Notes: generated by a model from the sequence alone, not told the origin. A stretch of 64,000 bases of DNA from Desulfobaccales bacterium (GCA_037481655.1 JBBFLF010000001.1:127052-191051), one strand, 5' to 3'. Numbered from the stretch's first letter, positions 7,557-61,173 are shown. Translations and numbers: made by a program.

Positions 7557-8188
7557 GGAGAGCAGACCCGCTGTGCGGCTCGTCCCCCTGGGAGTCACCG
7601 GACCCCTCCATCCGGCTGCCCTCCTTCAGCGAGTGCCTGGCCCTGATGGAGGAGTTCGGCATGCTCCCCCACATCCGGGAGCACTGCTTCATGGTGCAGG
7701 CGGTGGCCTGGGAGCTGGGGCAGGCGCTCACCGATGCCGGGCTGCCACTTTCTCTCCCCCTCATCGTGGCCGGGGCGCTCCTCCATGACCTGGGAAAGAC
7801 CCCCTGCCTGGCCACCGGCGAGGACCATGCCCGCTTCGGCGCCGATATTTTGGCGGCCCGGGGGTATGCGGAGGTGGCCCAGGTGGTGGCCCAGCACGTG
7901 CACCTGGAAGAGCATCCCACGACCGACCGGCCGCTGAGCGAGGCCGCGGTGGTGAACTATGCCGACAAGCGGGTGCTCCACACCCGGGTGGTGCTCTTGT
8001 CCGAGCGCTTTGCCGACCTGAAGCGCCGCTACGGCCGCACCCCGGAGCATGTGGCCCGCATCTCTTACTATGAAGAGCGCAGCCGCCTCTTGGAGGCCCG
8101 GCTGTTTGCCCCCCTCACTCTCAGGCCCGATGATCTTCTCAGCCTCAATCACAGGAGGATGCCATGGCAAAGCTCAGGCTCGCCCTGA
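7553..8188 (+). CDS. HD/HDIG-domain phosphohydrolase
   Basis: ATGA overlap with ispF. H...LLHDLGK metal-binding motif. Function otherwise unassigned. Confidence 0.6.
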   Translation: MRRADPLCGSSPWESPDPSIRLPSFSECLALMEEFGMLPHIREHCFMVQAVAWELGQALTDAGLPLSLPLIVAGALLHDLGKTPCLATGEDHARFGADILAARGYAEVAQVVAQHVHLEEHPTTDRPLSEAAVVNYADKRVLHTRVVLLSERFADLKRRYGRTPEHVARISYYEERSRLLEARLFAPLTLRPDDLLSLNHRRMPWQSSGSP

Positions 8189-9102
8189 TTGCCGGAGGGA
8201 AATCCGCCGAGCGGGAGGTCTCCCTGAAAAGCGGCGAGCAGGTCTTCCAGGCCCTGGACAAAGACAAATACGACATCCGGCGCTATGACCCCAAAGATGA
8301 CCTGGAACGCCTGGTCCGGGAGGCCCCGGAGCTGGATGTGGCCCTCATCATCATGCACGGTCGGGGGGGCGAGGACGGCACCCTCCAGGGGCTGCTGGAC
8401 CTCCTGGACGTCCCCTACCAGGGCTCCGGGGTTCTGGGGAGCGCCTTGGGCATGAACAAGGAGCTGAGCAAGATCCTCTACTGCCAGGCGGGGCTGGCGG
8501 TGCCTCCGGCCCTGTTTTTCCACCGGGAGGAGGCTCCCTCTGCCGCCGACATCATCGCCGAACTGGGCCTGCCGCTGGTGGTGAAGCCGGTGAACGAGGG
8601 CTCCAGCATCGGGGTGAGCAAGGTCGCGAGCCAGGCGGAGTTGGCGGCTGCCCTGGACAAGGCCTTTGCCTACGACCGGCGGGTGCTGGTGGAGAAGTTC
8701 ATCCCCGGCCGGGAGATCACCGGCGCGGTCCTGGGAAACGACCATCCCATCGGCCTTCCCCTGGTGGAGATCATTCCCGGGGAAAATTACGCCTTTTTCG
8801 ATTACGACGCCAAATACCAGCCCGGGGCCTCCAAAGAAATCTGCCCGGCCCCCCTGGACGAGGAGCTCACCCGCCGGGGTCAGGTCTGCGCGGTGGCGGC
8901 GCACAAAGCCCTCCAGTGCCGGGGCTACAGCCGCACCGACATGATTCTGGCGGACGGCGTCTTTTATGTCCTGGAGACCAACACCATCCCGGGCATGACC
9001 GCCACCAGCCTCTTTCCCCAGGCAGCCCAGGCCTATGGCCTCAGCTTTTCCCAGCTTCTGGACCGCCTGGTGGAGCTGGCCCTGGAGGGGCGCCGGAAAT
9101 AG
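8164..9102 (+). CDS. ddl: D-alanine--D-alanine ligase
   Basis: AGGKSAEREVSL.SG, HGRGGEDGTLQGLLDLL..PY.GSGVL.SA, LPLVVKP..EGSSIG, TNTIPGMT..SL. Confidence 0.92.
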   Translation: MAKLRLALIAGGKSAEREVSLKSGEQVFQALDKDKYDIRRYDPKDDLERLVREAPELDVALIIMHGRGGEDGTLQGLLDLLDVPYQGSGVLGSALGMNKELSKILYCQAGLAVPPALFFHREEAPSAADIIAELGLPLVVKPVNEGSSIGVSKVASQAELAAALDKAFAYDRRVLVEKFIPGREITGAVLGNDHPIGLPLVEIIPGENYAFFDYDAKYQPGASKEICPAPLDEELTRRGQVCAVAAHKALQCRGYSRTDMILADGVFYVLETNTIPGMTATSLFPQAAQAYGLSFSQLLDRLVELALEGRRK

Positions 9103-9107
9103 CCGGG

Positions 9108-10244
9108 GTGGGGAAGAGGGGTCAGACGGTGGCAGCAGGAGAGGCGACGGCCCCGGCCTGGCGGGAGGTGGCGGAGCTTCTCGCCGCCGGGGTGGGGGAG
9201 GTCTATACCGCCGCCGCGGCGGTGGTGGGGGAGGGAGGGGTGGTGCGCTGGCAGGGGGTCGCCGGGCGCCTGAGTCGCGATCCCCACTCGCCTCCGGCCA
9301 CTTTGGAGGCCGTCTTTGATCTGGCCTCCCTCACCAAGCCCCTGGCCACCGCCTTGGCGGTCCTACTACTTACGCAGGAAGAAAGAGTCAGCCTGGAGGA
9401 GCCCCTGCGGCGCTGGTTTTCCGGGCGCTGGCTGCCGCCGGACAAGGGGGAGCTGACCCTGATGCAGCTTCTCACCCACCGGGCCGGGCTGCCGGCCTGG
9501 CGGCCGCTCTTTCAGGACCTTTTGGAGGCGCCGCCCTCGGCGCGCCCCGGCCTTCTGCCCCGGCTGGCGGCGGCGGTGCCCCTGGAGCACCCTCCGGACA
9601 CCGTCACCCTTTATAGCGACCTGGGCTTCATGATGCTCCAGGGAGTGGTGGAGGAGGTGGCGGGCAGGCCCCTGGACGGGTTTTGTCGGGAAAAGATATA
9701 TGAGCCCCTGGGGCTGCGGCGTCTGGGCTTCAATCCCCGGCGGTGGCCTGGGGGCGATGCCCTCCCCTACGCCGCCACCGAGCCGGGGCTCATCTCCGGG
9801 CGGCCGGCGGCAGGTGAGGTGCACGACGAAAACGCCTGGGCCGCGGGCGGGGTGGCCGGCCATTCCGGGCTTTTCGGCACCGCTGGCGAGGTCTTCTCCC
9901 TGGTGAGTGCCCTGTGGCGGGCCTGGCAGGGAGAGGAGGGAAGTCCTTTCCAGCCGGCTGGGGTGCGCCATTTCCTGAGCCGGCCTCTGGGGGCGGAGCG
10001 GGCTTTGGGCTTTGACTGTCCGCCCGCGCCTCCGGAGTTGGGCGCCGCCGGCCACTATTTCTCCCCGGCCAGCGTGGGGCACCTGGGCTTCACCGGCACC
10101 TCTTTCTGGCTGGAGCCGGAGACCGGCCGGGTGGTGGTGCTCCTCACCAACCGGGTGCACCTGGGGCGGGAGGACAAGGAAAAGATCCAGGCCTTCCGGC
10201 CCCGCTTCCACGACGCCGCCTGCTGGGCCCTGGGCTGTGCCTGA
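9108..10244 (+). CDS. Serine hydrolase, beta-lactamase/transpeptidase-like
   Basis: SLTK (SxxK) nucleophile motif, YSDLGF, GHLGFTGTS. The start is uncertain. GTG 9108 was chosen just after the ddl stop; the track ORF start at 8916 lies inside ddl. Confidence 0.65.
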   Translation: MGKRGQTVAAGEATAPAWREVAELLAAGVGEVYTAAAAVVGEGGVVRWQGVAGRLSRDPHSPPATLEAVFDLASLTKPLATALAVLLLTQEERVSLEEPLRRWFSGRWLPPDKGELTLMQLLTHRAGLPAWRPLFQDLLEAPPSARPGLLPRLAAAVPLEHPPDTVTLYSDLGFMMLQGVVEEVAGRPLDGFCREKIYEPLGLRRLGFNPRRWPGGDALPYAATEPGLISGRPAAGEVHDENAWAAGGVAGHSGLFGTAGEVFSLVSALWRAWQGEEGSPFQPAGVRHFLSRPLGAERALGFDCPPAPPELGAAGHYFSPASVGHLGFTGTSFWLEPETGRVVVLLTNRVHLGREDKEKIQAFRPRFHDAACWALGCA

Positions 10245-11992: not shown

Positions 11993-12616
11993 TTACTCCA
12001 CTACCTGATACCCGTCCTCCGGGGTGATGGTGGCAAAGTAATAAGGCGGCCCCACCTCCTCTTTTGCCGCCGCCATCTTCTCCAGAAATTCCCGGCTCAG
12101 GGCCACCAAGGCCGGCAGGTCGCTCCCCGCCGCCAAGGCCTTAAAGAGCCGCATCTCCATCCCCAGGTTCCGGGGCATGACCACCAGGTTGCCCACCGGC
12201 ATGGGGTGCAAGGGCTCCCCTTCGTCGCTTCCCAGGAGCAGCAGGCGGTAACCCGGCGGGGGCAGGACCGGACTGAAGCCCCCCAGGATGAAGTAGACGC
12301 GTTTCAGTTCCCCTTCCCGGGGCGGATGGGCCGTCTGGTGCTTGACCACCCCCTGGCGGAGAAAGGCGGCGGCAAAATCAAAGACGTCCTCCAGATCCTC
12401 CAGCCCCCGGCGGCGGGAGATCTCCCGGGCCAGCACCTGGGACAGGGGCACGCTCACCCCGGCGCCCCCGCTTAGGATGGCGCTATAGCGGGTCAGGGGG
12501 AAGAGCTTGTTGACCACGAAATACTCCGGCTCCTCCTCGCCCCGGAAGCGGGTGGCCCGGGAGTCGGTGGCGAAAAACAGGCCATGTTCATTGAAACCGG
12601 CCAGGGCCTGGGTCAT
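11993..12616 (-). CDS. Proteasome beta-subunit-like Ntn hydrolase (orphan; not HslV-like)
   Basis: N-terminus M-TQALAGFNEHGLFFATDSRAT fits the beta-subunit pattern T1...D17(S/T)RAT with no propeptide. NKLFPL supplies a Lys33-equivalent after a 3-residue insertion. ILSGGAG matches the GxxAGxA block. GGAGGTG RBS is present, and the start forms an ATGA overlap with the GH13 stop. Confidence 0.55.
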   Translation of the reverse strand: MTQALAGFNEHGLFFATDSRATRFRGEEEPEYFVVNKLFPLTRYSAILSGGAGVSVPLSQVLAREISRRRGLEDLEDVFDFAAAFLRQGVVKHQTAHPPREGELKRVYFILGGFSPVLPPPGYRLLLLGSDEGEPLHPMPVGNLVVMPRNLGMEMRLFKALAAGSDLPALVALSREFLEKMAAAKEEVGPPYYFATITPEDGYQVVE

Positions 12617-13929
12617 GGGTTCACCTCCGGAGGCGTAAGCGGCGGCAGCGCCGGGTGGTAAAAGAGCCGCACCTCATAGGGCGCCAGGGTCAGGGGGCCC
12701 GCGGCCGGCCAGGGAACCGGGGCCCGCTCCGGGGTGAGCTCCCGCCACTCGCCGGGGCTTCCCCCCGCTGCCGCGGGGAAGGCCGGCACTTCCGCAGCCT
12801 CTGCCCCGGGGTTGATGACCGCCAGCACCCTGCCTGCCCCCTCATCCTGACTCTTCAGGAGCAGCACCGGCACCTCGCCTGCGGAGTTGAGGCGGACTTG
12901 CGGCCCTTCCGTCAGGAGCACCGGGCAGCCCGCCTTCAGGGCGTGGGTGGCGGCGATGAACTCCGTGAGATCATAGGTGGGCTCCTCCCAGTCCTCGGGG
13001 CGGGTGTGCACCACGTGCAGATGCTTCTTGAAGCCGAACTCATACCCCACCGGCATCATCAGGCCGGTGGAGAAGTAGGCGGCGAAGAGATAACGCTGTT
13101 TGGCCACCGCCGGGTTGCCGCCGCTTTCGGCGCTGAGCCGGGGGGTGTCGTGGGTCTCGGGGAAGCTCACCGACGGGGCCACGCGGCGGAAGAGCTCGTA
13201 CTGCTCCAGGCACCATTCCGCCTGAAAATCCCACCATTTGGAGCTGTTGTAGAGGAAATCAAAGCCCGCCTCCGCCAGTTGGGTGCACTCCTCGAGCCGG
13301 CAGCCCAGGGTCTCGGCGAAAAACTGCACTTCGGGCTCCAGGCTTTTGGCCTCGGTAATCAGGCGCTGCCAGAACCAGCCCGGGATCTTGTAAGCCGCAT
13401 CGGCCCGGAAGCCTGCAAAACCCAGGCGCAGATAGAAGGAGACCACCTGATCCCAGAAGTGGAGGAGCCCCTCGGGGTCGGGGACCGGCCAGTAGGCCAG
13501 CTCCGCCAGGTCCCCCCAGATGGTCACCCGGGTGGCATCCGCCGGGTCAATGCACCCCGGATTCTTGATGCTGCCGTCAGGGTTTTTGGCATACCACTCC
13601 GGGTGCTGCGCCACCAAGGGCGCATCAATGGCGGTGTGATTGATGACCAAATCCAGCATTACCCGGAGGCCCCGCTCCCGGGCGGCGGCCAGAAAATCCC
13701 GCAGGGCCTCCATGGGGTCGGAACCGTCCTCAGGCCAGAAGCGGGGGTTGATGCCGAAGTAGTCCTTCACCGCATACAGGCTGCCGGAGAGGCCAGGGGT
13801 ATGGATGGGGTTGAGGTAGATCCAGGTGAAGCCCATGCCGGCAATGCGCTCCAGGTGTGGGTGCCAGCGGTTGATGGGGCCTACCAGCAGCGGAAAGAGA
13901 TTGTAAATCAAAGTCGGGGGCATGAACAC
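12613..13929 (-). CDS. GH13 alpha-amylase-family protein, short GlgE-like (maltosyltransferase-like catalytic core)
   Basis: GFTWIYLNPIH, DLVINHTA, HPEWY...NPDGSI, GFRADAAYKIP..FW, FFAETLG, FPETHD resemble the GlgE catalytic domain without its N-terminal domains. Confidence 0.75.
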   Translation of the reverse strand: MFMPPTLIYNLFPLLVGPINRWHPHLERIAGMGFTWIYLNPIHTPGLSGSLYAVKDYFGINPRFWPEDGSDPMEALRDFLAAARERGLRVMLDLVINHTAIDAPLVAQHPEWYAKNPDGSIKNPGCIDPADATRVTIWGDLAELAYWPVPDPEGLLHFWDQVVSFYLRLGFAGFRADAAYKIPGWFWQRLITEAKSLEPEVQFFAETLGCRLEECTQLAEAGFDFLYNSSKWWDFQAEWCLEQYELFRRVAPSVSFPETHDTPRLSAESGGNPAVAKQRYLFAAYFSTGLMMPVGYEFGFKKHLHVVHTRPEDWEEPTYDLTEFIAATHALKAGCPVLLTEGPQVRLNSAGEVPVLLLKSQDEGAGRVLAVINPGAEAAEVPAFPAAAGGSPGEWRELTPERAPVPWPAAGPLTLAPYEVRLFYHPALPPLTPPEVNP

Positions 13930-14867: not shown

Positions 14868-15060
14868 GGGGGAGGGCCAGGGAGTGAGACTCCCTGCCCT
14901 CCCCCCACACACCCCTCCCAACCCTTTATGTTCGCCTGGAAGGCGGGCATTTGGCCCGCCTTCCAGGCGAAAAATTTTGACTTAAGAGATTCTGATGCGG
15001 TGAATGGTAAGGGCCACTGGCCCTTAGCCCCCTCCCCCACCTGCCTCTGATTCCCCCCAT
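14868..15060. repeat. Degenerate element copy carrying an inserted perfect 17-bp hairpin
   Basis: HP1 GTGGGGGGGAGGGCCAGGGAGT-gaga-CTCCCTGCCCTCCCCCCAC, then the left arm CCCCTCCCAACCCTTTA. The inserted hairpin TCGCCTGGAAGGCGGGC-atttg-GCCCGCCTTCCAGGCGA (14932-14970) follows. The right side is degenerate. Confidence 0.65.
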
Positions 15061-15608
15061 CTCTTGGTCAGCTGGTGCTCCAGCCCCAGGTAATCCAGGA
15101 TGCGGCCCACGAAGCTTTGGGCCAGGTCCGTCAGGGTGCGGGGGTGATGGTAGAAAGCGGGCATGGCCGGGAAGATGGCCGCGCCCGCCTCCGCCGCCAG
15201 AAGCAGATTGCGCAAATGCACCCGGCTCAGAGGGGTCTCCCGCACCGCCAGCACCAGGGGGCGGCCCTCTTTGAGGGTGACCTCCGCCGCCCGGTGCACC
15301 AGGTGGCGGGCGGTGCCGTGGGCAATGGCCGCCAGCGACCCCATGGTGCAGGGGATGACCACCATGGCCCGCACCACAAAAGAGCCGCTGGCGATGGGCG
15401 CAAAGAAATCCCCGGGGTCGTGCAGCACCGCCCGGGGCCCGGCCAGCTCCCGGAGGCTCAGCCCCAGCTCATGACGCAGCACCTGCACCCCGGCCTCCGA
15501 GGCCACCACATGGGCCTCCAGGTCCGGGCGGCCTTGGAAATAACCCAGCAGCTCCCGGGCATAGAGCATGCCGCTGGCCCCGGTGATGCCGATGATGTAG
15601 CGGTTCAT
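15024..15608 (-). CDS. ubiX: Flavin prenyltransferase UbiX family
   Basis: MNRYIIGITGASG..YA, VVIPCTMGSLAAIAHG, VLAVRETPL. Start at ATG 15608. Confidence 0.9.
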   Translation of the reverse strand: MNRYIIGITGASGMLYARELLGYFQGRPDLEAHVVASEAGVQVLRHELGLSLRELAGPRAVLHDPGDFFAPIASGSFVVRAMVVIPCTMGSLAAIAHGTARHLVHRAAEVTLKEGRPLVLAVRETPLSRVHLRNLLLAAEAGAAIFPAMPAFYHHPRTLTDLAQSFVGRILDYLGLEHQLTKRWGESEAGGGGG

Positions 15609-15639
15609 GATGGTTTCCTTCAGTTTGTTCTTGGTGGTT

Positions 15640-15814
15640 GAGGGGAGGACCGGGGGACCGATGGCCCCCCGCCCTCCCCTCACACTCCCCTCCCAACCCC
15701 CCTTAATTTGGAAAACCGAGGCTTAAGCCTCGATTCACGCCGGAAAATATACGGGGTTGGGGGAGGGAGTCTGAGGGAGGGGGGAGGGGCCTGCGGTCCC
15801 TCGCCCCCTCCCTC
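15640..15814. repeat. Full element copy with a ~48-nt insertion at the central TTAA
   Basis: HP1 GAGGGGAGGACCGGGGG..CCCCCCGCCCTCCCCTC. The central arms CTCCCCTCCCAACCCCCCTTAA ... ACGGGGTTGGGGGAGGGAG are separated by tttggaaaaccgaggcttaagcctcgattcacgccggaaaatat. HP3 GAGGGAGGGGGGAGGGGCC..CCCTCGCCCCCTCCCTC. Confidence 0.75.
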
Positions 15815-17444: not shown

Positions 17445-18266
17445 TCATACAAAAAGCAATTCCGGCATCTCTGTCAGGTGCCCCAGGCGGTGAAGGTAGC
17501 GGTAGAAGGCCATCAGGCCCTCCTGCTGGCGGGGCCCCAAATCATAGTTCAGGCGCCGGAAATAGTCCTGCAGCTCCGCCGGGCTCATCTCCACCCGGTT
17601 GGCGGCCAGGCGGCAGATCTCCGGGAGGTGCGCCAGCCCCAGGGCCTTGCTCTGCAAAAGGAAGTGCACCAGCTCCCGGACTTTCTCCGGCGCGGTCTGG
17701 GCCACCTGGCGGCGCACCGCCCAGAGCCCGAAGACAAAGGGGAGGCCGGTGAGCTCGTGCCAGGCCCGGCCCAGGTCGAGGAAATAGGGGTAACGGCCGC
17801 TGGCCTTGAGTTTCAGGGCCTCATCGCCGATGGCCAGGAGAGCGTAGACGCCGTCCGGCAACTCCGTGGTCACCGGCGCGCTGCGGTAAAACGGGCGGGC
17901 GCCATACAGTTCATACAGGAGGATGCGGGTGAGGGCGGCGGAGGTGGCGGAGGCCTCGCTCAGGCGCACCTCCCGGCCAGTAAGGCGGTGGAAGGGCACC
18001 CGGCTGAAGAGGAGCACGCTTCCCACATCCCCCTCAGTGCTGATGGACAGGTCCGGCACCAGGTAATACTGCCGGAAATTGCGGGCGTATTCCACCGAGG
18101 AGACGGCGCTCACGTCCACCTCCCCGGCGGCCAGCCGGGCGTTGAGTTCCGCCGGGGTGCCGGAGACCACCGCCAGGCCGTTTTCCAGATAGCCCATCTC
18201 CAGGGCAAAATAGATGGGCAGGACGTTGATATAGCGGATGCGCCCCAAACGCAGGCCCCCACTCAT
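17445..18266 (-). CDS. mqnA: Chorismate dehydratase MqnA
   Basis: LRLGRIRYINVLPIYFAL, SGTPAELN..L..GEVD.S..SS.EY, PFVFGLWA. Confidence 0.85.
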   Translation of the reverse strand: MSGGLRLGRIRYINVLPIYFALEMGYLENGLAVVSGTPAELNARLAAGEVDVSAVSSVEYARNFRQYYLVPDLSISTEGDVGSVLLFSRVPFHRLTGREVRLSEASATSAALTRILLYELYGARPFYRSAPVTTELPDGVYALLAIGDEALKLKASGRYPYFLDLGRAWHELTGLPFVFGLWAVRRQVAQTAPEKVRELVHFLLQSKALGLAHLPEICRLAANRVEMSPAELQDYFRRLNYDLGPRQQEGLMAFYRYLHRLGHLTEMPELLFV

Positions 18267-19495
18267 GTCTCCACCTCTTCATCGGGGGTGGCCAGCCACT
18301 CAATGCGGCCGGCGGCCCCTCCCGCCAACAGAGCTTCCCAAAAATCCGGGCCCTCCTCCGGGGTGACGGCAATGAGGGCCGCCTGCTTGCCGGGGGTGAG
18401 GCTCCCCAGCTCCGCCTCAAAGCGCAGGGCCCTGGCGCCTCCCAGGGTGACCCAGGCGATGAGTTCCTCCCCCGGCACCTCCGGGAACTCCTGGTGCAGA
18501 AGCCAGAGGTCCCGGAAGAGATTGTAATCCTCCACGCTGGCCAGGGAATCGGTGCCCAGAGCCAAGGAGAGGTTAGCTTGGCGAAAAAGCCCGAGGGGAG
18601 GCTTCCCGGCGCCGGTGTGGCGGTTGGAGCGGGGGCAGAGGACCACCGTCACCCCCTCCCGGGCCAGCAGCTCCACGTCCGCCCCGGTGACCTGGAGGCA
18701 ATGGACCGCCAGGGTGTCCGGCCCCAGCACCCCCAGGGAATGCAGATAAGCCACGGGAGACAAACCCGGCGGCTGGAACTCGTCCCGCCAGCGCCCCCGG
18801 GCCAGCAGGAGCTCCCGGAAAAAGCCTGTCCCGGTGTGCAAAAACTCCACCTCGGCCTCGGACTCGGCCAGATGCACCGCCAGGAGCCGCCCCCGGCGGC
18901 GGTTCCAGGCCGCCACCCGCCGGAAGAGGGCCGCCGAGACGGAGTAAGGGGCATGGGCGGCGGCGGAGAAATGGGGGTCATTGAGGGCGGCCTCCGTGAG
19001 GAAGATGGGAAAATCCCGGGCCAACGGCCCCTCATCCTGGAGGTGAAACCCCAGACATTCATAAAAATAGTGGTAATCCAGGCCGCTTTCCCTGAGGGCC
19101 TCCAGGCTGAGGCCGGTGTTGCTCACCTCGCCCACCAGGCCCGTGCCGAAGCGCCACAGCTCCCTGAGGCCCATCTCCAGCCCCCCTTCCCGCTCATAGG
19201 GGCTCAGGCGGTCGGCGGCCGTGAGCGTGGCCGTCAGCCAACTGGGGAAATCCGGCTGGGGGGGGATGCGGTTCTTGAGGGCGGAAAATTCCAGGTGCAC
19301 GTGGGCATTCACCAGACAGGGGAGGATGGCCACCTCGCCGTGATCCAGGACCGGCCCTCGCCAGCGATGCTCCAAATCGGCAAATCTCCCCACCTCCCGG
19401 ATGATCCCCCGGGCCACCGCCACCGCGCCGTCGTCGATGACCGGCCGGTCCACGGGCACCACGTGGCGGGCCCGGTGCAGGGTCACGGAAACCAC
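18263..19495 (-). CDS. Amidohydrolase-superfamily deaminase (cog0402 chlorohydrolase/MTA-SAH deaminase type); aminofutalosine deaminase by context
   Basis: LVNAHVHLEFS metal motif, HLAES.AE, LGTDS. ATGA-type overlaps with both neighbours in the mqn block. Confidence 0.7.
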   Translation of the reverse strand: MVSVTLHRARHVVPVDRPVIDDGAVAVARGIIREVGRFADLEHRWRGPVLDHGEVAILPCLVNAHVHLEFSALKNRIPPQPDFPSWLTATLTAADRLSPYEREGGLEMGLRELWRFGTGLVGEVSNTGLSLEALRESGLDYHYFYECLGFHLQDEGPLARDFPIFLTEAALNDPHFSAAAHAPYSVSAALFRRVAAWNRRRGRLLAVHLAESEAEVEFLHTGTGFFRELLLARGRWRDEFQPPGLSPVAYLHSLGVLGPDTLAVHCLQVTGADVELLAREGVTVVLCPRSNRHTGAGKPPLGLFRQANLSLALGTDSLASVEDYNLFRDLWLLHQEFPEVPGEELIAWVTLGGARALRFEAELGSLTPGKQAALIAVTPEEGPDFWEALLAGGAAGRIEWLATPDEEVET

Positions 19496-21558
19496 GTGCG
19501 CCAGTCCTCCCCCAGATCGCCCCGGAGGCGGTAACGCTCCATCAGCCGGCCGCAGTGGCAGGCCGCCGGCGCCGCCAGCAGGGTAGGGAGCAGTTTCAGG
19601 GCCAGCCCGCCGAAGGCGGCCTCCACCGCCTGCACTCTTGCCGTCTCCTCCGGGGTGGCCAGGCCCTCAAAGAGCACCCCCGGCTGATAGGGGCGCTCGG
19701 CCACCCCCTCGGCAAAGTTCACCACATAGCACAAGGGCACATAGCAGAGCTCCAGTTCCCGGGCCAGAAAGACCTCGGGCACCAGGGTCTGGCCCACCAG
19801 GTCACCCCCCAGAAGTTTCAGCTTGCGGATCTCCGCCGGCGTCTCCAGCCGGGGGCCGGTGGTGGCGGCATAGACCCCGCCGTCATGCACCGGGAAGGGG
19901 CAGTCGGTCAGCGCCGCCAGCAGGGCTTGGCGCAGGGCGGGGCAGAAGACCGGCTGGTGCCGGATAAAACCCGGCCCCCGGCCGGGAAAAAAGGTGTAGG
20001 GCCCGTGAGTGGTCTCATCCAGGATGTCCTGGGGCACCACCAGATGCCCCGGGGCCATGGCCGGATTGATGGCGCCCGGGGCGCACCAGGCCAGAATGCG
20101 GCTTACCCCCAGGGACTTGAGGGCATAGAGGTTGGCCCGGTCGTTGACAAAGGGGGCCGAGACTTCGTAGCCCGCCTCCCCGTGCCGGGAGAGCACCGCA
20201 AAACTGAGTTCCCCCTGGCGAAAAACATGCACCGGATTGGCTTGGCCGAAGGGGGTGTGGAGGTGCTTGACCCCTTCATATTCCACCCCCAGGGCGAGAA
20301 AATCCCGGTGGGCCCCCACCCGGGCGATGACCGCCAGGGGCACGGCGTCCGGCGGCGGCCAGGAAGTGGATAGCGGCGCCTCGGTGCCCCCTTCCTTATT
20401 GCTATTTGGGCCAGGATTTCCCCCCGATGGCACGGATTCTCGTGCTGGTCCGGATGCTGAGGCCCCGGCAGGGGGAGTGGTCATGATTCCTTGGGCATCT
20501 CTTTGCACCGCCCGGTAGAGGTGATCCCGCTGCCGGGGAACGTAGCCGGCGGTGGTGATGAGATGGACGATATCCTCCCGGGAGAGGCGGAAGGTGACCC
20601 CGGTGGCGGCCACCACGTTTTCCTCGATCATGGTGGAGCCGAAGTCATTGGCGCCAAACTCCAGGGCCACCTGGGCCACCTTATCTCCTTGGGTGACCCA
20701 GGAGACCTGCAGATTGGGGACGTTGTCCAATACCAGGCGGGAGATTGCCAGGGTTTTGAGATACTCATGGGCCCCCGCGGCCTCGCCCCCCAGGGCGGTG
20801 CCCCCAGGCTGGAAGGTCCAGGGGATGAAGGCGGTGAAGCCCCCCGTCCTATCCTGCAGCTCCCGGATCCGGAGGAGATGCTCGGTGCGCTCCGCCCGGC
20901 TCTCCACGTGGCCGAACATCATGGTGGCGGTGGTCCGGAGCCCCAGACGGTGGGCGGTCTCCATGACCTCAAGCCAATGGGCCGCCGTGGCCTTATTAGG
21001 TGAAATGAGGCGCCGCACGCCCTCGGTGAGGATTTCGGCCCCGCCCCCGGGGATGGAGGAGAGGCCCGCGGCCATGAGGCGCTGCAGCACCTCTTTGAGG
21101 CTTATGCCGAAGTGCCGGGCAAAAAAGACGATTTCGGGGGGCGAAAAGCCGTGCACATGCAACCCGAAGTCCCGGATGGTGGCCACCAGCTCTTCGTAAT
21201 AGGAGAAGGGCAGATCGGGGTTAAGGCCACCCTGGAGGAGGATGCCGGTGCCGCCCAGCTCCCGGGTTTCCTGAAGTTTCCGGCGCAGCTCCTCCCAGGT
21301 AAGGACGTAGCCCTCGGGATGCCCCGGCGGCCGGAAAAAGGCGCAAAACCGGCACCCCGACAGGCAGATGTTGGTGTAATTGATATTGCGGTCGCAGACA
21401 AAAGTGACCACCGGCTCCGGGTGCAGGCGCTGGCGCACCCGCTTAGCCAGGCTCCCCAGGAGCAACAGGTCCAGGTCCCAGAGCGCCAAAGCCTCCAGGG
21501 CGGAGAGGCGCTCTCCGGCCAGGGTTTTCTCCACGGCGATGGCGGCCAGGCGGTCCAT
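19483..21558 (-). CDS. mqnC: Fusion protein: MqnC-type radical SAM (cyclic dehypoxanthine futalosine synthase-like) N-domain + MTAP-like nucleoside phosphorylase C-domain
   Basis: N-terminal part: DRNINYTNICLSGCRFCAFFR, ILLQGGLNPDLPF, HGFSPPEI. A low-complexity P/G/S/A linker follows. C-terminal part: HTPFG, FAVLSRHGEAGYEVSAPFVNDRANLYALKSLGV.RILAW.A.G, GHLVVPQD..DET, ATTGPRLETPAEIR, G.DLVGQT.VPE..LARE.E.CY (MTAP pattern). The start ATG shares one base with the upstream stop (TGATG at 21556-21560). Confidence 0.8.
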   Translation of the reverse strand: MDRLAAIAVEKTLAGERLSALEALALWDLDLLLLGSLAKRVRQRLHPEPVVTFVCDRNINYTNICLSGCRFCAFFRPPGHPEGYVLTWEELRRKLQETRELGGTGILLQGGLNPDLPFSYYEELVATIRDFGLHVHGFSPPEIVFFARHFGISLKEVLQRLMAAGLSSIPGGGAEILTEGVRRLISPNKATAAHWLEVMETAHRLGLRTTATMMFGHVESRAERTEHLLRIRELQDRTGGFTAFIPWTFQPGGTALGGEAAGAHEYLKTLAISRLVLDNVPNLQVSWVTQGDKVAQVALEFGANDFGSTMIEENVVAATGVTFRLSREDIVHLITTAGYVPRQRDHLYRAVQRDAQGIMTTPPAGASASGPARESVPSGGNPGPNSNKEGGTEAPLSTSWPPPDAVPLAVIARVGAHRDFLALGVEYEGVKHLHTPFGQANPVHVFRQGELSFAVLSRHGEAGYEVSAPFVNDRANLYALKSLGVSRILAWCAPGAINPAMAPGHLVVPQDILDETTHGPYTFFPGRGPGFIRHQPVFCPALRQALLAALTDCPFPVHDGGVYAATTGPRLETPAEIRKLKLLGGDLVGQTLVPEVFLARELELCYVPLCYVVNFAEGVAERPYQPGVLFEGLATPEETARVQAVEAAFGGLALKLLPTLLAAPAACHCGRLMERYRLRGDLGEDWRTWFP

Positions 21559-22655
21559 CAGGAGATCACGTTGTACAGGGTGTCCCGCTCCACCGGCTCG
21601 CACCCTGCCTCCCTAATCAGGCGCAGGAGGGCCTGCCGGGGAAGCCCGGTGGGCGTCTTGGCGCCGGCCATGTGGGTGATGCGCTCCTCGATGACCGTGC
21701 CGTCAATGTCGTCGGCCCCGAAGGTGAGGGAGAGCTGTGCCAGTTTGGGGCCCACCATGATCCAGAAGGACTTGATGTGGGGGAAGTTGTCCAGCATCAG
21801 GCGGGCCACGGCGATGTTTTTGAGATCGTCAAAGCCGGTGGTGTGGCTCAAGTGCTCCAGCTCGGTGTTGGCCGGGTGGAAGGCCAAAGGAATGAAGGTG
21901 AGGAAGCCCCCGGTCTCGTCCTGGGCCTCTCTTAAGCGCACCAGATGCTCCACCCGCTCCTCCAGGGTCTCCACGTGCCCGTAGAGCATGGTGGCGTTGG
22001 TGCGCAGCCCCAGGCGATGGGCGGTCTTAGCCACCTCCAGGTAGCCTTCGGGGGAGAGCTTTTTGGGGCAGAGCTCCCGGCGGATGCGGCTGCTGAAGAC
22101 CTCCGCCCCGCCGCCGGGCAGGGACCCCAGCCCCGCTTCTTTCAGGGCCTCCAGGGTGTCGGCCACGGACATGCCGGCCAGCTCCGCCAGGTGGGCGATC
22201 TCCACGCAGGTGAAGGCCTGCAGATGCACCGTGGGCCGCAAACGCTTGATGCCCCGGAGCATCTCCAGATAATAGGTGAAGGGCAAGTCCGGATGGAGTC
22301 CGCCCACGATGTGGATCTCGGTGATGGGCTCGGCCAGGCGCTCCTCGATGCGGGCGAAGATCTCCTCCAGGGTCATCTCATAGGCCTGGGGGTCCCCTTT
22401 GGGCTTGCCGAAGGCGCAGAAACGGCAGCCGTTGACGCAGACGTTGGAGTAGTTGAGGTGCTGGTTGTAGATATAGTAAGCCCGGTGGCCGTGCAGGCGC
22501 CGGCGCACCAGATTGGCCAGATAGCCCACCCCCAGAAGATCCGGGCTGCGATACAGGGTGAGGCCGTCCTCGAAGCTCAGGCGCTCCTGAGCCTGCACCT
22601 TGTCATAGATGGGCAAGAGGGCGGCATCGCTGATATAGGGTTCCGGTCCGGTCAT
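21558..22655 (-). CDS. mqnE: MqnE-type radical SAM (aminofutalosine synthase-like)
   Basis: NQHLNYSNVCVNGCRFCAFGK, EIHIVGGLHPDLPFTYYLEML, GSLPGGGAE. The MqnE versus MqnC assignment of the two paralogues is from memory of family signatures and could be swapped. Confidence 0.75.
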   Translation of the reverse strand: MTGPEPYISDAALLPIYDKVQAQERLSFEDGLTLYRSPDLLGVGYLANLVRRRLHGHRAYYIYNQHLNYSNVCVNGCRFCAFGKPKGDPQAYEMTLEEIFARIEERLAEPITEIHIVGGLHPDLPFTYYLEMLRGIKRLRPTVHLQAFTCVEIAHLAELAGMSVADTLEALKEAGLGSLPGGGAEVFSSRIRRELCPKKLSPEGYLEVAKTAHRLGLRTNATMLYGHVETLEERVEHLVRLREAQDETGGFLTFIPLAFHPANTELEHLSHTTGFDDLKNIAVARLMLDNFPHIKSFWIMVGPKLAQLSLTFGADDIDGTVIEERITHMAGAKTPTGLPRQALLRLIREAGCEPVERDTLYNVIS

Positions 22656-22800: not shown

Positions 22801-22929
22801 GAGGGAAGGGCCGGGGGAGCGGTGGCTCCCCCACCCTCCCCTCAGACTCCCCTCCCCACCCCCCTTAAGGGGTTGGGGAGAGGGTGGGGGAGAGGGGCTA
22901 GAGGGCTATGCTCCCTGGCCCCCTCTCCC
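22801..22929. repeat. Full element copy
   Basis: GGGCCGGGGGAGC-ggtg-GCTCCCCCACCCTCCCC; central CTCAGACTCCCCTCCCCACCCCCCTTAAGGGGTTGGGGAGAGGG; then GGGGGAGAGGGGCTAGAGGGC-tatg-CTCCCTGGCCCCCTCTCCC. Confidence 0.8.
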
Positions 22930-23601
22930 GGTATCCTGCCAATTCCTCCCCGGCGGCGCCAATCCCCGGCGCAGCAGTTCAATGAGCTCCCGGCCCCGGA
23001 CGGCCACCTCCTCAGCCGCGGCCTGGTTCAACCCCAGGGTGACGTCAAAGGCGGGCATGGCCACGGCCTGCAGGAAGCGGTCAAAGACCGCGTCCAACAG
23101 AAAAATAGCCGCCTCCGGGGAGACCTCCGCCCGGATCTCCCCCCGGGAAAGGCCCTGGCGCACCAGGGAGGCGAAATAGTCGGCGGCGAAGCGGCGCACC
23201 GCGGCCAACAGCTCCTGGCGCCGAGGAGTGCGCTGGTCGTAGAGAATCCGCAGATACAGGCCGAAGAGCCGGGGGTGGCGCCGAAGGAAGTCCACTCCGG
23301 CCATCAGCGATTTTTCCAGCCGGGTGAAGACATCGGCCTCCCGGGTCTCTTCCTTGACGCCAAGCAGGGTGCGGCGCACCACCCCCACCGCCACCTCGAA
23401 AAGGTAGAGAAAAATTCCCTGCTTGTCGGTAAAATACTGATACAGGGAGCCCTTGGCGATGCCTGAGACCGCCACCACGGCGTTGAGGCTGGCCTGCTCG
23501 AACCCCTTGTCGGCAAACTCCGCCAGGGCCGCGTCGATGATCCGCTCCCGTTTTTCCGGGGGCAGATTGAGGAAGGTGGGGCGTACCGGGGAAGCTTCCA
23601 T
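22906..23601 (-). CDS. TetR-family transcriptional regulator
   Basis: N-terminal HTH: RERIIDAALAEFADKGFEQASLNAVVAVSGIAKGSLYQYFTDK. Confidence 0.85.
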   Translation of the reverse strand: MEASPVRPTFLNLPPEKRERIIDAALAEFADKGFEQASLNAVVAVSGIAKGSLYQYFTDKQGIFLYLFEVAVGVVRRTLLGVKEETREADVFTRLEKSLMAGVDFLRRHPRLFGLYLRILYDQRTPRRQELLAAVRRFAADYFASLVRQGLSRGEIRAEVSPEAAIFLLDAVFDRFLQAVAMPAFDVTLGLNQAAAEEVAVRGRELIELLRRGLAPPGRNWQDTGRGGQGA

Positions 23602-24305: not shown

Positions 24306-24733
24306 TGGCGGTGAAGATCCTCACCACCCCCCGCCTGGAGCGCTGCATCGGCTGCTATTCCTGCTCCCTGGCCTGCGCCCGGCTGGTGCACCGGCGCCTG
24401 TCCTGGGAGACCGCGGGCATCCGCATCTTCACCTCCGGGGGGCTGTCCACCGGCTTTGAGGCCAGGGTCTGCCTGGCCTGCGACCCGCCACCCTGTGCCG
24501 CGGCCTGCCCCACCGGCGCCTTTGCGCCCCGCAAGGGGGGCGGGGTGGTGGTGCGTCGGCGGCTGTGCCTCCGCTGCGGCGAGTGCGCCCGGGCCTGCCC
24601 GGTGAATGCCATTTTTCTGGACTCCCAGGGCGAGCCCTTCGTCTGCCTGCACTGCGGCCGTTGCGTGCCATTCTGCCCCCATGACTGCCTGGCCATGGCG
24701 GAGGTGGCTGCCGCCGGGGAGGAGGCGCCATGA
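24305..24733 (+). CDS. 4Fe-4S dicluster ferredoxin-domain protein (AOR partner)
   Basis: CIGCYSCSLAC, CLACDPPPCAAACP, CLRCGECARACP, CLHCGRCVPFCP. Overlaps both neighbours by 1-4 nt. Confidence 0.8.
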   Translation: MAVKILTTPRLERCIGCYSCSLACARLVHRRLSWETAGIRIFTSGGLSTGFEARVCLACDPPPCAAACPTGAFAPRKGGGVVVRRRLCLRCGECARACPVNAIFLDSQGEPFVCLHCGRCVPFCPHDCLAMAEVAAAGEEAP

Positions 24734-26475
24734 TCCGGGACACCTTCCGGGTGCTGTGGGTGGATCTGGGGACCGGCAAGGGCCGGGTGGAGGAGTTCCC
24801 CGGGCGGGAGGAGGTCCTGGGCGGCAGCGGCCTGGCGGCCCGCCTCTTTGAGCACTACGGCCGCCCAGAGCTCCCTTGGGACCATCCGGAGCAGCCCCTC
24901 ATCTTCGCCATCGGCCCCTTGACCGGCTACTTCCCCCTGATGAGCAAGACGGTGGCCGGCTTTCTCTCCCCCTATCACGGCCAGTACGCCGAAAGCCACG
25001 CCGGCGGCCGCTCCGCCCTGGCCCTGCGCTTTGCCGATTTGGACGCCCTGGTGGTGAGCGGCCGGGCTCCCCGCCCCAGTGTTTTGGGGGTGGGCTCCCG
25101 GCACCTGGAAGTGCGGGAGGCCCACTATCTCTGGGGCCGGGATGTCCTGGCGGTGGGCAAGTACCTGCGCCGCATGTTCTCCGGCGCCGGGCACCGCAGC
25201 ATCCTGCGCATCGGCCCGGCAGGCGAGCAGGGCTCCGCCTATGCCTGCATCAACGTGGACACCTACCGCCACTTCGGCCGGCTGGGGGGCGGGGCGGTGA
25301 TGGGCACCAAAAACCTCAAGGCCATCGTCATCCAGGGGGACGCCACCTTTCCCCTCCCGGAGGGCAAGGCCTACGCCGCCCTCTTTGAACGGGTCTTCCG
25401 GCTCCTCACCGACACCCCCATGATGCGGAAGTACCATGACCTGGGGACGCCCGCCAACATCCGGGTCTTGAACGACCTCAAGGCCCTCCCCTGGCGCAAC
25501 CTCGCCGCCACCCACGACCCGGCGGCCCGGGAGATCAGCGGGGAGAGGTTTGCCGAGGCCACGCTGCTCCGCAACACCGCCTGCGCCGGCTGCCCGGTGG
25601 GCTGCATCCACCTGGGGTTTGTGCGGGAAAGATTCCGGGAGGAAAACCGCTATTTCTTCCGCCAGATCGCCTATGACCATGAGCCCATCTACGCCATGGG
25701 CTCCATGCTGGGGGTGACGGACGCCTTTCAGGTGCTCCGCCTCATTGAGGTCACGGACCGCCTGGGCCTGGATGTCATGAGCGCCGGGGTGGCCCTGGCC
25801 TGGGCGGTGGAGGCCTGGGAGCGGGGCCTGCTCACCGAACACGACACCCTGCTCCCCCTGGGATTTGGGGATGTCCCCGCCCTGGAGGAGGCCCTGCGCC
25901 ATCTGGCCTGGGGGAGCACCGACTTCTACCGCCTCCTGGCCCAAGGTGCCGCCAAGGCGGCCGCGGTCTATGGCGGCGGGGATTTTGCCTGCGTGCTGGG
26001 GCAGGAGATGGCCGGCTACGCCACCGGCGAAGTCTTCTTCGTCGGCCAGGCCCTGGGCTTCCGCCACTCCCACCTGGATGCCGCCGGCTATGCGTATGAC
26101 CAGAAGGTTCAGGAACGCCGGGTGGAGGACGCCCTCGCCTACCTCCTCACCGAGGAACGCCAGCGGGTGGTGCTCACATCGCTGGTGGCCTGCCTCTTTG
26201 CCCGGGAGGTCTATCGCCCGGAGGTGGTGGCGGAATGCCTGGAAGTCCTGGGCTATCGGGAGGTGGCGGCCCGCCTGCCGGGGCTGGGGGAGGAGATTCA
26301 GCGCCGCCGCTGGCGCCTGAAGCTGGCCACCGGCTATGACCCGGAGCGGGTGGAGATTCCCAAACGCTTTTATGAGGTGGAGAACTGGAAGGGCAGGGTG
26401 GACGGCAACTTCATGGCCGCCCTGAAGGCCGCTTATGCCCAGGCCATCCGGGAGCTGGGCCGGCCCCTTCAGTGA
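24730..26475 (+). CDS. Aldehyde:ferredoxin oxidoreductase family (tungstopterin) enzyme
   Basis: 581 aa. GGSGLAARL, GPLTG, SPYHG.YAESHAGG, GRLGGGAVMG.KNLKAI, NTACAGCPVGCIH, LG.DVMSAG. Confidence 0.88.
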   Translation: MIRDTFRVLWVDLGTGKGRVEEFPGREEVLGGSGLAARLFEHYGRPELPWDHPEQPLIFAIGPLTGYFPLMSKTVAGFLSPYHGQYAESHAGGRSALALRFADLDALVVSGRAPRPSVLGVGSRHLEVREAHYLWGRDVLAVGKYLRRMFSGAGHRSILRIGPAGEQGSAYACINVDTYRHFGRLGGGAVMGTKNLKAIVIQGDATFPLPEGKAYAALFERVFRLLTDTPMMRKYHDLGTPANIRVLNDLKALPWRNLAATHDPAAREISGERFAEATLLRNTACAGCPVGCIHLGFVRERFREENRYFFRQIAYDHEPIYAMGSMLGVTDAFQVLRLIEVTDRLGLDVMSAGVALAWAVEAWERGLLTEHDTLLPLGFGDVPALEEALRHLAWGSTDFYRLLAQGAAKAAAVYGGGDFACVLGQEMAGYATGEVFFVGQALGFRHSHLDAAGYAYDQKVQERRVEDALAYLLTEERQRVVLTSLVACLFAREVYRPEVVAECLEVLGYREVAARLPGLGEEIQRRRWRLKLATGYDPERVEIPKRFYEVENWKGRVDGNFMAALKAAYAQAIRELGRPLQ

Positions 26476-28070: not shown

Positions 28071-28880
28071 TCAGTCCCAGGGCCAGATCTGGGCCAGGTA
28101 GGCCAATGAGGGCTCCAGACTGCCCTCGGCGTGGGGCTCCAGGGTGATGAGGGGGGGGTTTTCCAGGCGGGCCGCCAGGTAGTCCAGGACGAATTTGAGG
28201 GGCACCCGGCCGGTGCCCAGGGCGGCGTGATGGTCGTGGCTGCCGTCGTTGTCGTGCAGATGCAGCAGGCCGATGTGGGGCCAAAGGGCCGCCAGCCAGC
28301 CTTCGTAATCCCCATCCCCGAAGGCGAGCAAGTGCCCCACATCGAGGCAGACCTTGAGGTTAGGGACTTGGGCCCGCTGCAGCACCTCCAGAAAGAGGTT
28401 TTTATCCTCCCCTTTCTCAAAGACGTTCTCCAGGACCAGCAAGGCGCCTGCGGCCCGGGCGGCTTGGGCCAGCTCCCGAAAGGTGGCGGTGGCCCGACTG
28501 AGCCACCTTTTTTGGGCGTGGCGGTAGTGCCGGGCCTCATAGCCCAGGTGACAGACCAGCGCCGCCGGGCGAAAGACAGGCAGCCAGCGCACGACCTGGC
28601 GCAGGCGCTTTCTCGTGGCTGCCAGCACCAGGTCATCCAGGGCCCCGGGGGCCATGTCCTGGAAGGGGGCATGCAATGTGAGGCGCCGCCCGGCCAGGAG
28701 AAACCGCCGGGCGACGCCCTTAAGGATGCGGGGCGGATAGCGGCTGAGGCTCCGGGCGTCCAGGCCGATTTCCGGGTTCAGGCCCCGCTCCAGAAACAGC
28801 GGCCCATAATGGCCCAGGAGATACGGGAAGGGAATGTTGACCTGGACCCGGGAAATGAGGGCCTCAGGGGAAAGCCCCAT
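28071..28880 (-). CDS. Xylose-isomerase-like TIM-barrel protein (sugar phosphate isomerase/epimerase or AP-endonuclease-2 fold)
   Basis: LHAPF, LVLENV, CLDVGH, LHLHDNDGSHDHH..LGTG metal-ligand pattern. Confidence 0.6.
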   Translation of the reverse strand: MGLSPEALISRVQVNIPFPYLLGHYGPLFLERGLNPEIGLDARSLSRYPPRILKGVARRFLLAGRRLTLHAPFQDMAPGALDDLVLAATRKRLRQVVRWLPVFRPAALVCHLGYEARHYRHAQKRWLSRATATFRELAQAARAAGALLVLENVFEKGEDKNLFLEVLQRAQVPNLKVCLDVGHLLAFGDGDYEGWLAALWPHIGLLHLHDNDGSHDHHAALGTGRVPLKFVLDYLAARLENPPLITLEPHAEGSLEPSLAYLAQIWPWD

Positions 28881-52975: not shown

Positions 52976-52998
52976 CCGGCGCGCCGGAGCTTTTGGCC

Positions 52999-60900: not shown

Positions 60901-61173
60901 GTTTCGGCCTCCCATTCAGCAAGTGGTTCGTCCAGGAGTGATGCAGGAGATGCCTACGGTTACGGCACGAAAGGCTGGCGGCCACGAAGCTCACATCAGC
61001 CTTCCCGGTTGAAGGTTGTCTGCCGGCGTCCCGTCTCCGGGCCGTCCGGAGCGGGGGGAAAACGCCTTGCTTCACCTCCTTTCGCCCGAGTTAGTGAGGA
61101 TGATCGATGTGCGAGGTCGGGGTGGAAAGCCCGAGGCCCCACCGTCGGGCCTTCCTGCCCTCCCTCTTCCGTT

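Follow-up and report, generated by a model that had tools for sequence, protein, structure and literature searches.

In a 64-kilobase (kb) stretch of DNA from a Desulfobaccales bacterium (GCA_037481655.1 JBBFLF010000001.1:127052-191051; 64,000 nucleotides (nt), hereafter the window), a gene of a futalosine-pathway operon for menaquinone (vitamin K2) encodes the cyclic dehypoxanthinyl futalosine synthase MqnC and a C-terminal PF01048 domain in a single protein. This C-terminal domain, together with its standalone homologues in other genomes, is referred to as X, and the gene as mqnC::X. X is probably the nucleoside-cleaving enzyme of the futalosine pathway and a non-orthologous functional replacement of MqnB. 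The gene and its parts are located as follows.

19483..21558, minus strand: fused gene mqnC::X, a single open reading frame (ORF) of 691 amino acids (aa) plus stop codon
20503..21558, minus strand: MqnC domain, aa 1-352 (cyclic dehypoxanthinyl futalosine synthase), assigned by TIGR03699 and by PF04055 plus PF19288
21343..21366, minus strand: radical S-adenosylmethionine (SAM) cluster motif C65-x3-C69-x2-C72 (CLSGCRFC), read from the translation
20344..20502, minus strand: low-complexity linker, aa 353-405 (53 aa), delimited by composition and by the predicted local distance difference test (pLDDT) of an AlphaFold2 (AF2) model
19483..20343, minus strand: domain X, aa 406-691 plus stop codon, a nucleoside-cleaving domain of the MTAP/MTIP fold and of a distinct subfamily, assigned by PF01048 and by PDB, profile, and fold matches

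The open frame extends over 19483..21603 on the minus strand (706 codons counted from a GTG), and the ATG at 21558 is the likely start because it overlaps the stop codon of mqnE (TGATG) and all homologues begin there. A first-pass annotation of this DNA had described one 691-aa ORF of two domains joined by a P/G/S/A-rich linker of roughly 60 aa; this description holds, with a linker of 53 aa of which P/G/S/A/T make up 68%. The same annotation had called the N-terminal domain MqnC/MqnE-type, and this can now be narrowed. The MqnC model TIGR03699 matches aa 16-350 with 483.8 bits (cutoff 428.1) over profile positions 1-341 of 342, whereas the MqnE model remains below its cutoff (353 against 434.55), and the N-terminal ~350 residues are MqnC proper. 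C65, C69, and C72 of the CxxxCxxC [4Fe-4S] motif are invariant in an alignment of 19 fused homologues. The linker has a pLDDT below 30 in the full-length AF2 model and is predicted to be disordered; among fused homologues it spans roughly 10-75 aa and is hypervariable in sequence and length, with drift confined to it and strong conservation in both enzymatic halves. The model of the full-length fusion is shallow (pLDDT 65), so that domain-domain contacts are not readable from it.

The fusion itself is well attested. In the closest cultured relative, Desulfobacca acetoxidans, mqnC and X are separate genes with a stop codon and 46 nt between them, a spacer whose place the linker occupies in the fused form, and a related 644-kb contig (L001) carries an apparent frameshift inside mqnC. 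Both facts could be taken to suggest that the fusion is an artefact of assembly or sequencing, produced by loss of a stop codon or by a frameshift, the latter being a case that the first-pass annotation had considered; nevertheless, the probability of such an artefact is negligible. The 691-aa protein recurs letter-for-letter on an independent Logan assembly, and the same three Pfam domains in the same architecture are found in 31 further protein clusters (90% level; 655-714 aa, 66-93% identity) drawn from four data sources (JGI, NCBI, ENA, and Logan), with in-frame linkers of many different lengths. An artefact is thereby ruled out. All fused forms belong to a Desulfobacca/Syntrophobacterales-like clade, in which they are interleaved with unfused forms on a distance tree; this interleaving, together with the stop codon and gap of D. 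acetoxidans, therefore identifies the fusion as a recurrent or labile read-through across the short gap that separates two neighbouring genes of the same orientation. On the 644-kb contig, the same fusion is called at 7114-9167 as two overlapping ORFs (298 and 388 aa), which implies a frameshift in its mqnC part, whether through an error of sequencing or because the gene is a pseudogene.

X is a member of PF01048 (108.1 bits; gathering score 25.1), and its scores and motifs indicate a hitherto undescribed subfamily, neither canonical 5′-methylthioadenosine phosphorylase (MTAP) nor MqnB. The best NCBIfam match, MTAP TIGR01694, reaches 169 bits (cutoff 274.85) and begins at profile position 20; 5′-methylthioinosine phosphorylase (MTIP) NF006599 reaches 151.6 bits (cutoff 223); and MqnB (TIGR03664) is not among the 24 NCBIfam matches at E<=1e-3. 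A canonical MTAP or MqnB identity was ruled out by these curated cutoffs together with the motifs, and a canonical MTIP identity is disfavoured by its cutoff. The best single-sequence PDB match is the Pseudomonas aeruginosa MTIP (3OZB; E 2.7e-30, 33-34% identity), and profile matching gives E 1e-61 for archaeal MTAPs and E 1e-61 to 1e-54 over archaeal and human MTAPs together. In Foldseek comparisons, an AF2 model of X (pLDDT 86.7) reaches template-modelling (TM) scores of 0.78-0.84 with the MTAPs of human and Sulfolobus and with the P. aeruginosa MTIP. MTAP/MTIP structures account for all of the 50 highest-ranking fold matches (TM 0.7-0.84), and no MTAN or MqnB structure is among these 50. 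Of 1.84 billion cluster representatives searched, approximately 35-40 align through the C-terminal tail of X, and ordinary MTAP/MTIP proteins stop at about residue 215. The subfamily signature comprises SRHG; W(S/C/V)(G/A)PG; NxAEG followed by an insertion of ~10 residues (RPYQPGVLFEGL); and the tail CxC..M.RYR..G....DW..W. Three clades are distinguished: clade A, which is that of the window and includes fused and standalone forms; its sister clade B, which is ~48% identical; and clade C, from Planctomycetota/Phycisphaerae.

Since MTAP and MTIP are the best NCBIfam and PDB matches, it might be supposed that X is a housekeeping MTAP/MTIP salvage enzyme that resides in the operon by chance, its fusion being neutral read-through of a short spacer. 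The lability of the fused and unfused states within the clade agrees with this supposition, as do the database names of its relatives, which are "MTAP family purine nucleoside phosphorylase" or "5′-methylthioadenosine phosphorylase" (the fusions are named after MqnC alone). It is nonetheless improbable that X is of this kind, because both equivalog cutoffs are missed, X is set apart in a subfamily that has invariant motifs of its own, gene order and linkage to mqn genes are conserved across phyla, and the reading frame and both halves of the fusion have been kept over the whole 66-93% identity range.

The active site was compared by alignment of X to human MTAP, the sequence of which was verified against 1CB0. 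The following elements are of interest.

20308..20328, minus strand: IARVGAH motif, aa 411-417, in place of the MTAP phosphate loop IIGG(T/S)GL, from the alignment
20176..20190, minus strand: SRHGE, aa 457-461, containing the equivalents of the MTAP phosphate ligands Arg60/His61, from the alignment to human MTAP and invariant among the fused homologues
19786..19794, minus strand: G-Q-T, aa 589-591, with the equivalents of MTAP Met196/Thr197; Thr is invariant and is preceded by Q or M
19705..19725, minus strand: VVNFAEG, aa 612-618, with Asn at the MTAP Asp220 position and an invariant subfamily-specific Glu, from the alignment
19489..19560, minus strand: C-terminal tail C-x-C...LMERYRLRGDLGEDWRTWF, aa 667-690, a subfamily signature conserved in clades A, B, and C

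The first-pass annotation had regarded X as a complete MTAP-type domain. This is correct for the fold and incorrect for the N-terminal phosphate loop, where IARVGAH stands for IIGG(S/T)G; the motif is invariant in clade A, fused and standalone, and replaces Thr18 by Val and Gly17 by Arg. The human MTAP positions compared here are those of phosphate ligands and of adenine-recognition residues. Among the former, the equivalents of Arg60, His61, Ala94, and Thr197 are kept and invariant in X, with Cys or Val standing at the Thr93 position; two of the six ligands (Thr18 and Thr93) are replaced in clade A, and one Arg is inserted. Clade B retains the GGS loop and has Ser in place of the Cys/Val of clade A at Thr93. 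The invariance of the Arg60/His61/Thr197 equivalents and the complete phosphate site of the sister clade tip the balance modestly toward X being phosphorolytic and giving a 1-phosphate, with uncertainty in clade A, where replacement of the GGS/T loop and of the Thr93 equivalent makes direct hydrolysis possible; in clade B, with its complete site, phosphorolysis is likely. Clade C (P0256, P0391-P0509; loci L088-L090) keeps NxAEG and the tail, whereas its GGS loop and the counterparts of His61 and Thr197 are gone (e.g., RYG, VVTHAFVPE); no mqn linkage is present in its three loci, and its members may be hydrolases or non-catalytic relatives. The CxC of the tail also occurs in archaeal MTAPs, and the extension past it is not present in the outgroup.

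The base pocket differs as well. The adenine-recognition positions Ser178, Asp220, and Asp222 are Glu, Asn, and Ala in X, and the dyad of Glu (GPRLET) and Asn (VVN) is common to X and the hypoxanthine-specific MTIP 3OZB. Glu/Asn, as in Glu201/Asn243 of purine nucleoside phosphorylase (PNP) versus Ser178/Asp220 of MTAP, is the signature of 6-oxopurine enzymes. The first-pass annotation had left the released base as hypoxanthine or adenine; because X has the dyad of the 6-oxopurine enzymes and not the Ser/Asp of MTAP, hypoxanthine is predicted and adenine disfavoured, in agreement with the adjacent aminofutalosine-deaminase-like gene. Furthermore, all positions were scanned without bias for those that are conserved within the subfamily yet differ from the outgroup. 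H65Y, P69A, H137F, V236L, and L237F emerged, as did an invariant Arg two residues after H137F and the C-terminal tail. The region of H65, P69, H137, V236, and L237 lines the 5′-alkylthio pocket of human MTAP, and the part of the active site of X that faces the 5′ substituent has therefore been rebuilt.

The remaining genes of the operon are as follows.

22906..23601, minus strand: TetR-family regulator at the operon head (PF00440 plus TetR_C)
21558..22655, minus strand: mqnE (aminofutalosine synthase, radical SAM), TIGR03700, 503.6 bits, above the cutoff of 434.55
18263..19495, minus strand: amidohydrolase, probable aminofutalosine deaminase, best NCBIfam match NF006269
17445..18266, minus strand: mqnA (chorismate dehydratase), PF02621, 241 bits
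15822..17270, minus strand: UbiD-family menaquinone decarboxylase (SCO4490-type, MqnL), TIGR03701, 681 bits, cutoff 495.9
15024..15683, minus strand: UbiX-like flavoprotein (MqnM-type prenyl-flavin mononucleotide synthase), PF02441, 132 bits
13993..14910, minus strand: UbiA-family prenyltransferase (MqnP-type), PF01040, 197 bits

The operon thus reads TetR-mqnE-mqnC::X-deaminase-like-mqnA-UbiD-UbiX-UbiA, all on the minus strand; the TetR gene has the same position in D. acetoxidans and on the related 644-kb contig. Start and stop codons overlap among the four early-step genes, i.e., the mqnE stop with the mqnC::X start, the X stop with the GTG of the deaminase gene, and the deaminase stop with the mqnA start, and mqnC::X is translationally coupled within the operon. 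Family and PDB matches bear out the mqnA, the second radical SAM gene (mqnE), and the aminofutalosine-deaminase-like gene that had been recognised in the cluster at first pass. The best PDB match of mqnA is the chorismate dehydratase SCO4506 (7AHR; E 2e-38). The amidohydrolase has the aminofutalosine deaminase family NF006269 as its top match with 164.7 bits, below the cutoff of 320; its best PDB matches, which extend along the entire protein, are 3V7P/4M51 and 2IMR, and 7LKJ, labelled aminofutalosine deaminase, matches as well. Goble and colleagues reportedly characterised 3V7P/4M51 and 2IMR as aminofutalosine deaminases in 2013. No second PF01048 gene (MqnB/MTAN/MTAP) and no second PF02621 gene (MqnD) were found among ~55 ORFs scanned over the 64 kb, alternative-strand ORFs included, and mqnB and mqnD are therefore both absent from the window; the absence of a recognisable MqnB, previously noted for the cluster, thus extends to the entire stretch.

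Gene context was also compared in the 80 best genome matches, taken at one genome per species and comprising 41 loci of the X subfamily and 39 of ordinary MTAP/MTIP. A gene for mqnC, mqnE, or mqnA lies within 10 kb of X at 11 of the 41 subfamily loci, in metagenome-assembled genomes (MAGs) of at least six phyla, versus none of the 39 outgroup loci. The labels of these MAGs are Desulfobacca/Syntrophobacterales, Nitrospirota, Armatimonadota, Gemmatimonadales, Planctomycetota, and Anaerolineales. All clade-A loci have the order mqnE-mqnC-X-deaminase-mqnA-UbiD, and unfused relatives such as D. acetoxidans, with X 46 nt past mqnC, share this order through to UbiA. In clade B, X is beside mqnC and/or mqnE in MAGs of Nitrospirota, Armatimonadota (two), Gemmatimonadales, Planctomycetota, and Anaerolineales; the deaminase-like gene alone adjoins X in three further Planctomycetota/Armatimonadia loci; and in a Scalindua locus X is next to the deaminase-like gene, with mqnE 7 kb away. 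No MqnB-type or other PF01048 gene was found among the scanned neighbours of mqn-linked X loci, and none of the PF02621 genes of the X-linked clusters is MqnD-like, all of them being MqnA-like. Another fusion, with two radical SAM plus CofH_C units (double MqnE/MqnC-type; 725-790 aa, P0152-P0240), is abundant and ranks directly after the MqnC::X fusions in the search. It is encoded at loci L085 (8001-10202) and L086 (8001-10253), the latter neighboured by TetR and by two PF02621 genes, of which one is MqnA-like and the other probably MqnD; two of these double fusions (P0152 and P0227) were examined for a canonical mqnB in the place of X, and no PF01048 neighbour was found.

In the proposed scheme, MqnA and MqnE would form aminofutalosine, which the adjacent amidohydrolase would deaminate to futalosine. 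X, with its MTAP/MTIP fold (presumably trimeric), Glu/Asn base pocket, and remodelled 5′-pocket, would then break the N-glycosidic bond and free hypoxanthine, and we infer that the ribosyl product, dehypoxanthinyl futalosine, would be handed over to the tethered MqnC domain for cyclisation. X as the futalosine-cleaving enzyme is favoured by the choice of MqnC specifically as fusion partner and the recurrence of this fusion in 31 clusters; by the Glu/Asn base pocket, which suits the adjacent deaminase, and the remodelled 5′-pocket; by the identical gene order, with X after mqnC, in unfused relatives and the translational coupling in the window; by an mqn linkage specific to the subfamily (11/41 versus 0/39 loci); and by the absence of an MqnB-type or PF01048 gene from the window and from the scanned neighbours of mqn-linked loci. 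The non-orthologous replacement of MqnB suggested in the first-pass annotation thus gains strong guilt by association through the mqn linkage, and that interpretation is partly supported overall.

Several observations weigh against this assignment. Most clade-B loci, e.g., those of Nitrospinota, have no mqn neighbours; the Nitrospinota X genes are found in contexts such as a hexapeptide transferase and cation efflux. A canonical mqnB or mtnN may be present elsewhere in the genome, the absence covering the window and the scanned neighbours. The changes in the 5′-pocket are to bulkier hydrophobics, and the pocket could equally have shrunk for a small 5′-deoxy group. Finally, a 1-phosphate product does not fit the known chemistry of MqnD, for which the hemiacetal must be free, so that an additional phosphatase or another step would be required; no phosphatase for a 1-phosphate is present in this operon, from which mqnD is missing too.

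The bulkier pocket would be compatible with a small 5′-methyl group and with a role of X solely in clearing a by-product of radical SAM chemistry. Most radical SAM enzymes, MqnC included, release 5′-deoxyadenosine (5′-dAdo), and MqnE does not. In such a scheme, modelled on the DadD and MTIP pair of Methanocaldococcus jannaschii, the amidohydrolase would deaminate the inhibitory 5′-dAdo released by MqnC, X would phosphorolyse the resulting 5′-deoxyinosine, the fusion would locally relieve product inhibition, and futalosine would be cleaved by an enzyme encoded elsewhere. The partner is the 5′-dAdo-producing MqnC and not MqnE, and the 6-oxopurine pocket and paired deaminase are also as this scheme would have them; promiscuous deaminase/phosphorylase pairs of this sort are noted in the literature (PMC6302742). 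Clearance as the sole role of X is the one serious alternative, and we consider it rather unlikely. These anaerobes have many radical SAM enzymes, and a general scavenger would have no reason to reside in mqn operons across phyla. Ordinary MTAP/MTIP homologues handle 5′-deoxy nucleosides, and none of their 39 loci is linked to mqn genes. The deaminase, moreover, fits the aminofutalosine deaminase model better than that of 5′-dAdo deaminase (164.7 versus 74.5 bits), and the cleavage step of the pathway itself would be left without a candidate in otherwise near-complete operons. Futalosine cleavage and by-product clearance are, by analogy with MTAN in Helicobacter, not mutually exclusive: X may also take 5′-deoxyinosine or methylthioinosine, as MTAN of Helicobacter acts on several adenosyl compounds.

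The lack of an MqnD-like PF02621 gene in X-linked clusters is also what would be expected if X replaced MqnD or performed another later step. A PF01048 gene, "mqnZ", is clustered with mqnC/mqnE and with the mqnEAC operon in Negativicutes and Clostridia, was found only in genomes without mqnD, and was proposed, without support, to replace MqnD (Ravcheev and Thiele, 2016; PMC4746308). X resembles MqnZ, which has no assigned function, in this co-localisation; no taxon named in that article is among the 80 best genome matches. In X, the purine-recognition dyad and the Arg/His/Thr phosphate ligands are kept, with a complete site in clade B, and this retained nucleoside-phosphorylase apparatus points to cleavage of a glycosidic bond and not to a retro-aldol reaction. 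Moreover, mqnD is often unlinked in other organisms. A role of X in place of MqnD is accordingly very unlikely.

If futalosine cleavage by X is retained, it may be asked whether the subfamily defines a phosphorolytic branch of the pathway. Tentatively, and with less than even probability, X could be a true futalosine phosphorylase that yields dehypoxanthinyl-futalosine 1-phosphate, to be dephosphorylated or used by MqnC and an MqnD-independent later step. Such a branch would be the overlooked route to cleavage in lineages that include Nitrospinota, anammox and other Planctomycetota, Armatimonadota, Nitrospirota, and Desulfobaccales, the Desulfobaccales clade having rebuilt the phosphate loop (IARVGAH) and become fused to MqnC. 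Phosphatase-type genes adjoin clade-B X in three loci (L010 10038-10817, L040 8581-9270, and L043 9204-9878), a small sample: in an Armatimonadota mqn operon (L010), SurE directly follows X, and in a Planctomycetota MAG (L040) and an Anaerolineales MAG (L043), an HD/YfbR-like phosphohydrolase gene is located between mqnC and X. The two HD proteins are 72% identical, and the two loci probably represent one evolutionary event. Because a 1-phosphate misfits MqnD chemistry, these neighbours are suggestive, though weak; dephosphorylation of the 1-phosphate would explain the presence of the SurE and HD-phosphohydrolase genes by X at these loci.

Comparison with known enzymes sets X apart. MqnB of Thermus thermophilus and Streptomyces coelicolor (EC 3.2.2.26; TIGR03664) performs the step proposed for X, i.e., conversion of futalosine to hypoxanthine and the MqnC substrate after deamination of aminofutalosine, and both belong to the broad PNP_UDP_1 (PF01048) superfamily. 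MqnB is of the MTAN-like nucleosidase branch and hydrolytic; X, by contrast, has trimeric-type MTAP/MTIP structural neighbours, keeps the Arg/His/Thr phosphate ligands, and is fused to MqnC. MTAN (MtnN/Pfs; EC 3.2.2.30) of Helicobacter pylori and Campylobacter jejuni is a general cleaver of adenosyl nucleosides recruited to the futalosine pathway, as X would be, and multi-substrate use (methylthioadenosine, 5′-dAdo) is possibly common to both. However, MTAN hydrolyses the adenine nucleoside aminofutalosine directly, without a deaminase, whereas X has a 6-oxopurine pocket, a paired deaminase, and another branch of the fold. The P. aeruginosa MTIP (PA3004, 3OZB; EC 2.4.2.44), which is paired with a methylthioadenosine deaminase, shares with X the Glu/Asn dyad and the logic of deamination before cleavage; unlike X, it has a canonical GG(S/T)G loop, an NxAAG motif, and His at 65 and 137, and has neither the C-terminal tail nor a linkage to mqn genes. 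The archaeal MTAP/MTAPII (Sulfolobus 1V4N and 2A8Y; Aeropyrum 1WTA) and human MTAP (1CB0) have the fold of X and the Arg60/His61/Thr197 equivalents, and the archaeal ones share CxC. The MTAPs have Ser178/Asp220 for adenine and Thr18/Thr93 for phosphate, where X has Glu/Asn and Val/Cys plus an inserted Arg, and X additionally has the ~10-residue insertion (RPYQPGVLFEGL) after the NxAEG strand and the further C-terminal extension.

Other features of the window are given for completeness. Directly downstream of UbiA, a 438-aa ORF (12613-13929, minus strand) has only an N-terminal alpha-amylase/glycogen-debranching-like match and is followed by a 207-aa ORF (11993-12616, minus strand) with no Pfam match. 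The genes ispD and ispF of the methylerythritol phosphate isoprenoid pathway, followed by one for an HD-domain protein, occupy 6358-8188 (plus strand), ~6 kb past the 3′ end of the mqn operon (UbiA ends at 13993) and roughly 11 kb from X; owing to this proximity, isoprenoid-supply and menaquinone head-group genes share a neighbourhood. A tandem pair of family-III CoA-transferase paralogues (57973-60915, minus strand), an aldehyde:ferredoxin oxidoreductase (24730-26475, plus strand), and a small radical SAM gene by queC, probably queE (52993-54353, plus strand), are also encoded and agree with an anaerobe of Desulfobaccales/Syntrophobacterales type. A 221-aa ORF with an RNase H/RVT_3 (reverse-transcriptase-like) domain (873-1538, plus strand) overlaps the end of a CT398-like zinc-ribbon gene (208-966). 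A xylose-isomerase-like TIM-barrel (AP_endonuc_2) protein (28071-28880, minus strand) is encoded within 26.8-29.5 kb, a region in which the longest ORFs of either strand have no Pfam matches and gene calls are uncertain.

To our knowledge, MqnB and MTAN, both hydrolases from the MTAN-like branch, are the only enzymes to which the cleavage step of the futalosine pathway has so far been assigned, and a literature search found no account of an MTAP-type futalosine-cleaving enzyme or of an MqnC fusion. If the assignment of X is correct, it would constitute a third, MTAP-type solution to nucleoside cleavage in this pathway. It would provide a candidate for the step in several phyla of environmental importance (nitrite oxidisers, anammox bacteria, and syntrophic sulfate reducers), no canonical gene being present in the X-linked mqn clusters examined, and would correct the blanket annotation "MTAP/5′-methylthioadenosine phosphorylase" carried by hundreds of these proteins. 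If X is phosphorolytic, a phosphorylated intermediate possibly enters menaquinone biosynthesis. As a Rosetta-stone link, MqnC::X allows the hypothesis to be put to a direct test using a single recombinant protein, and the fusion would represent a natural case of either substrate hand-over or by-product removal at a radical SAM enzyme.

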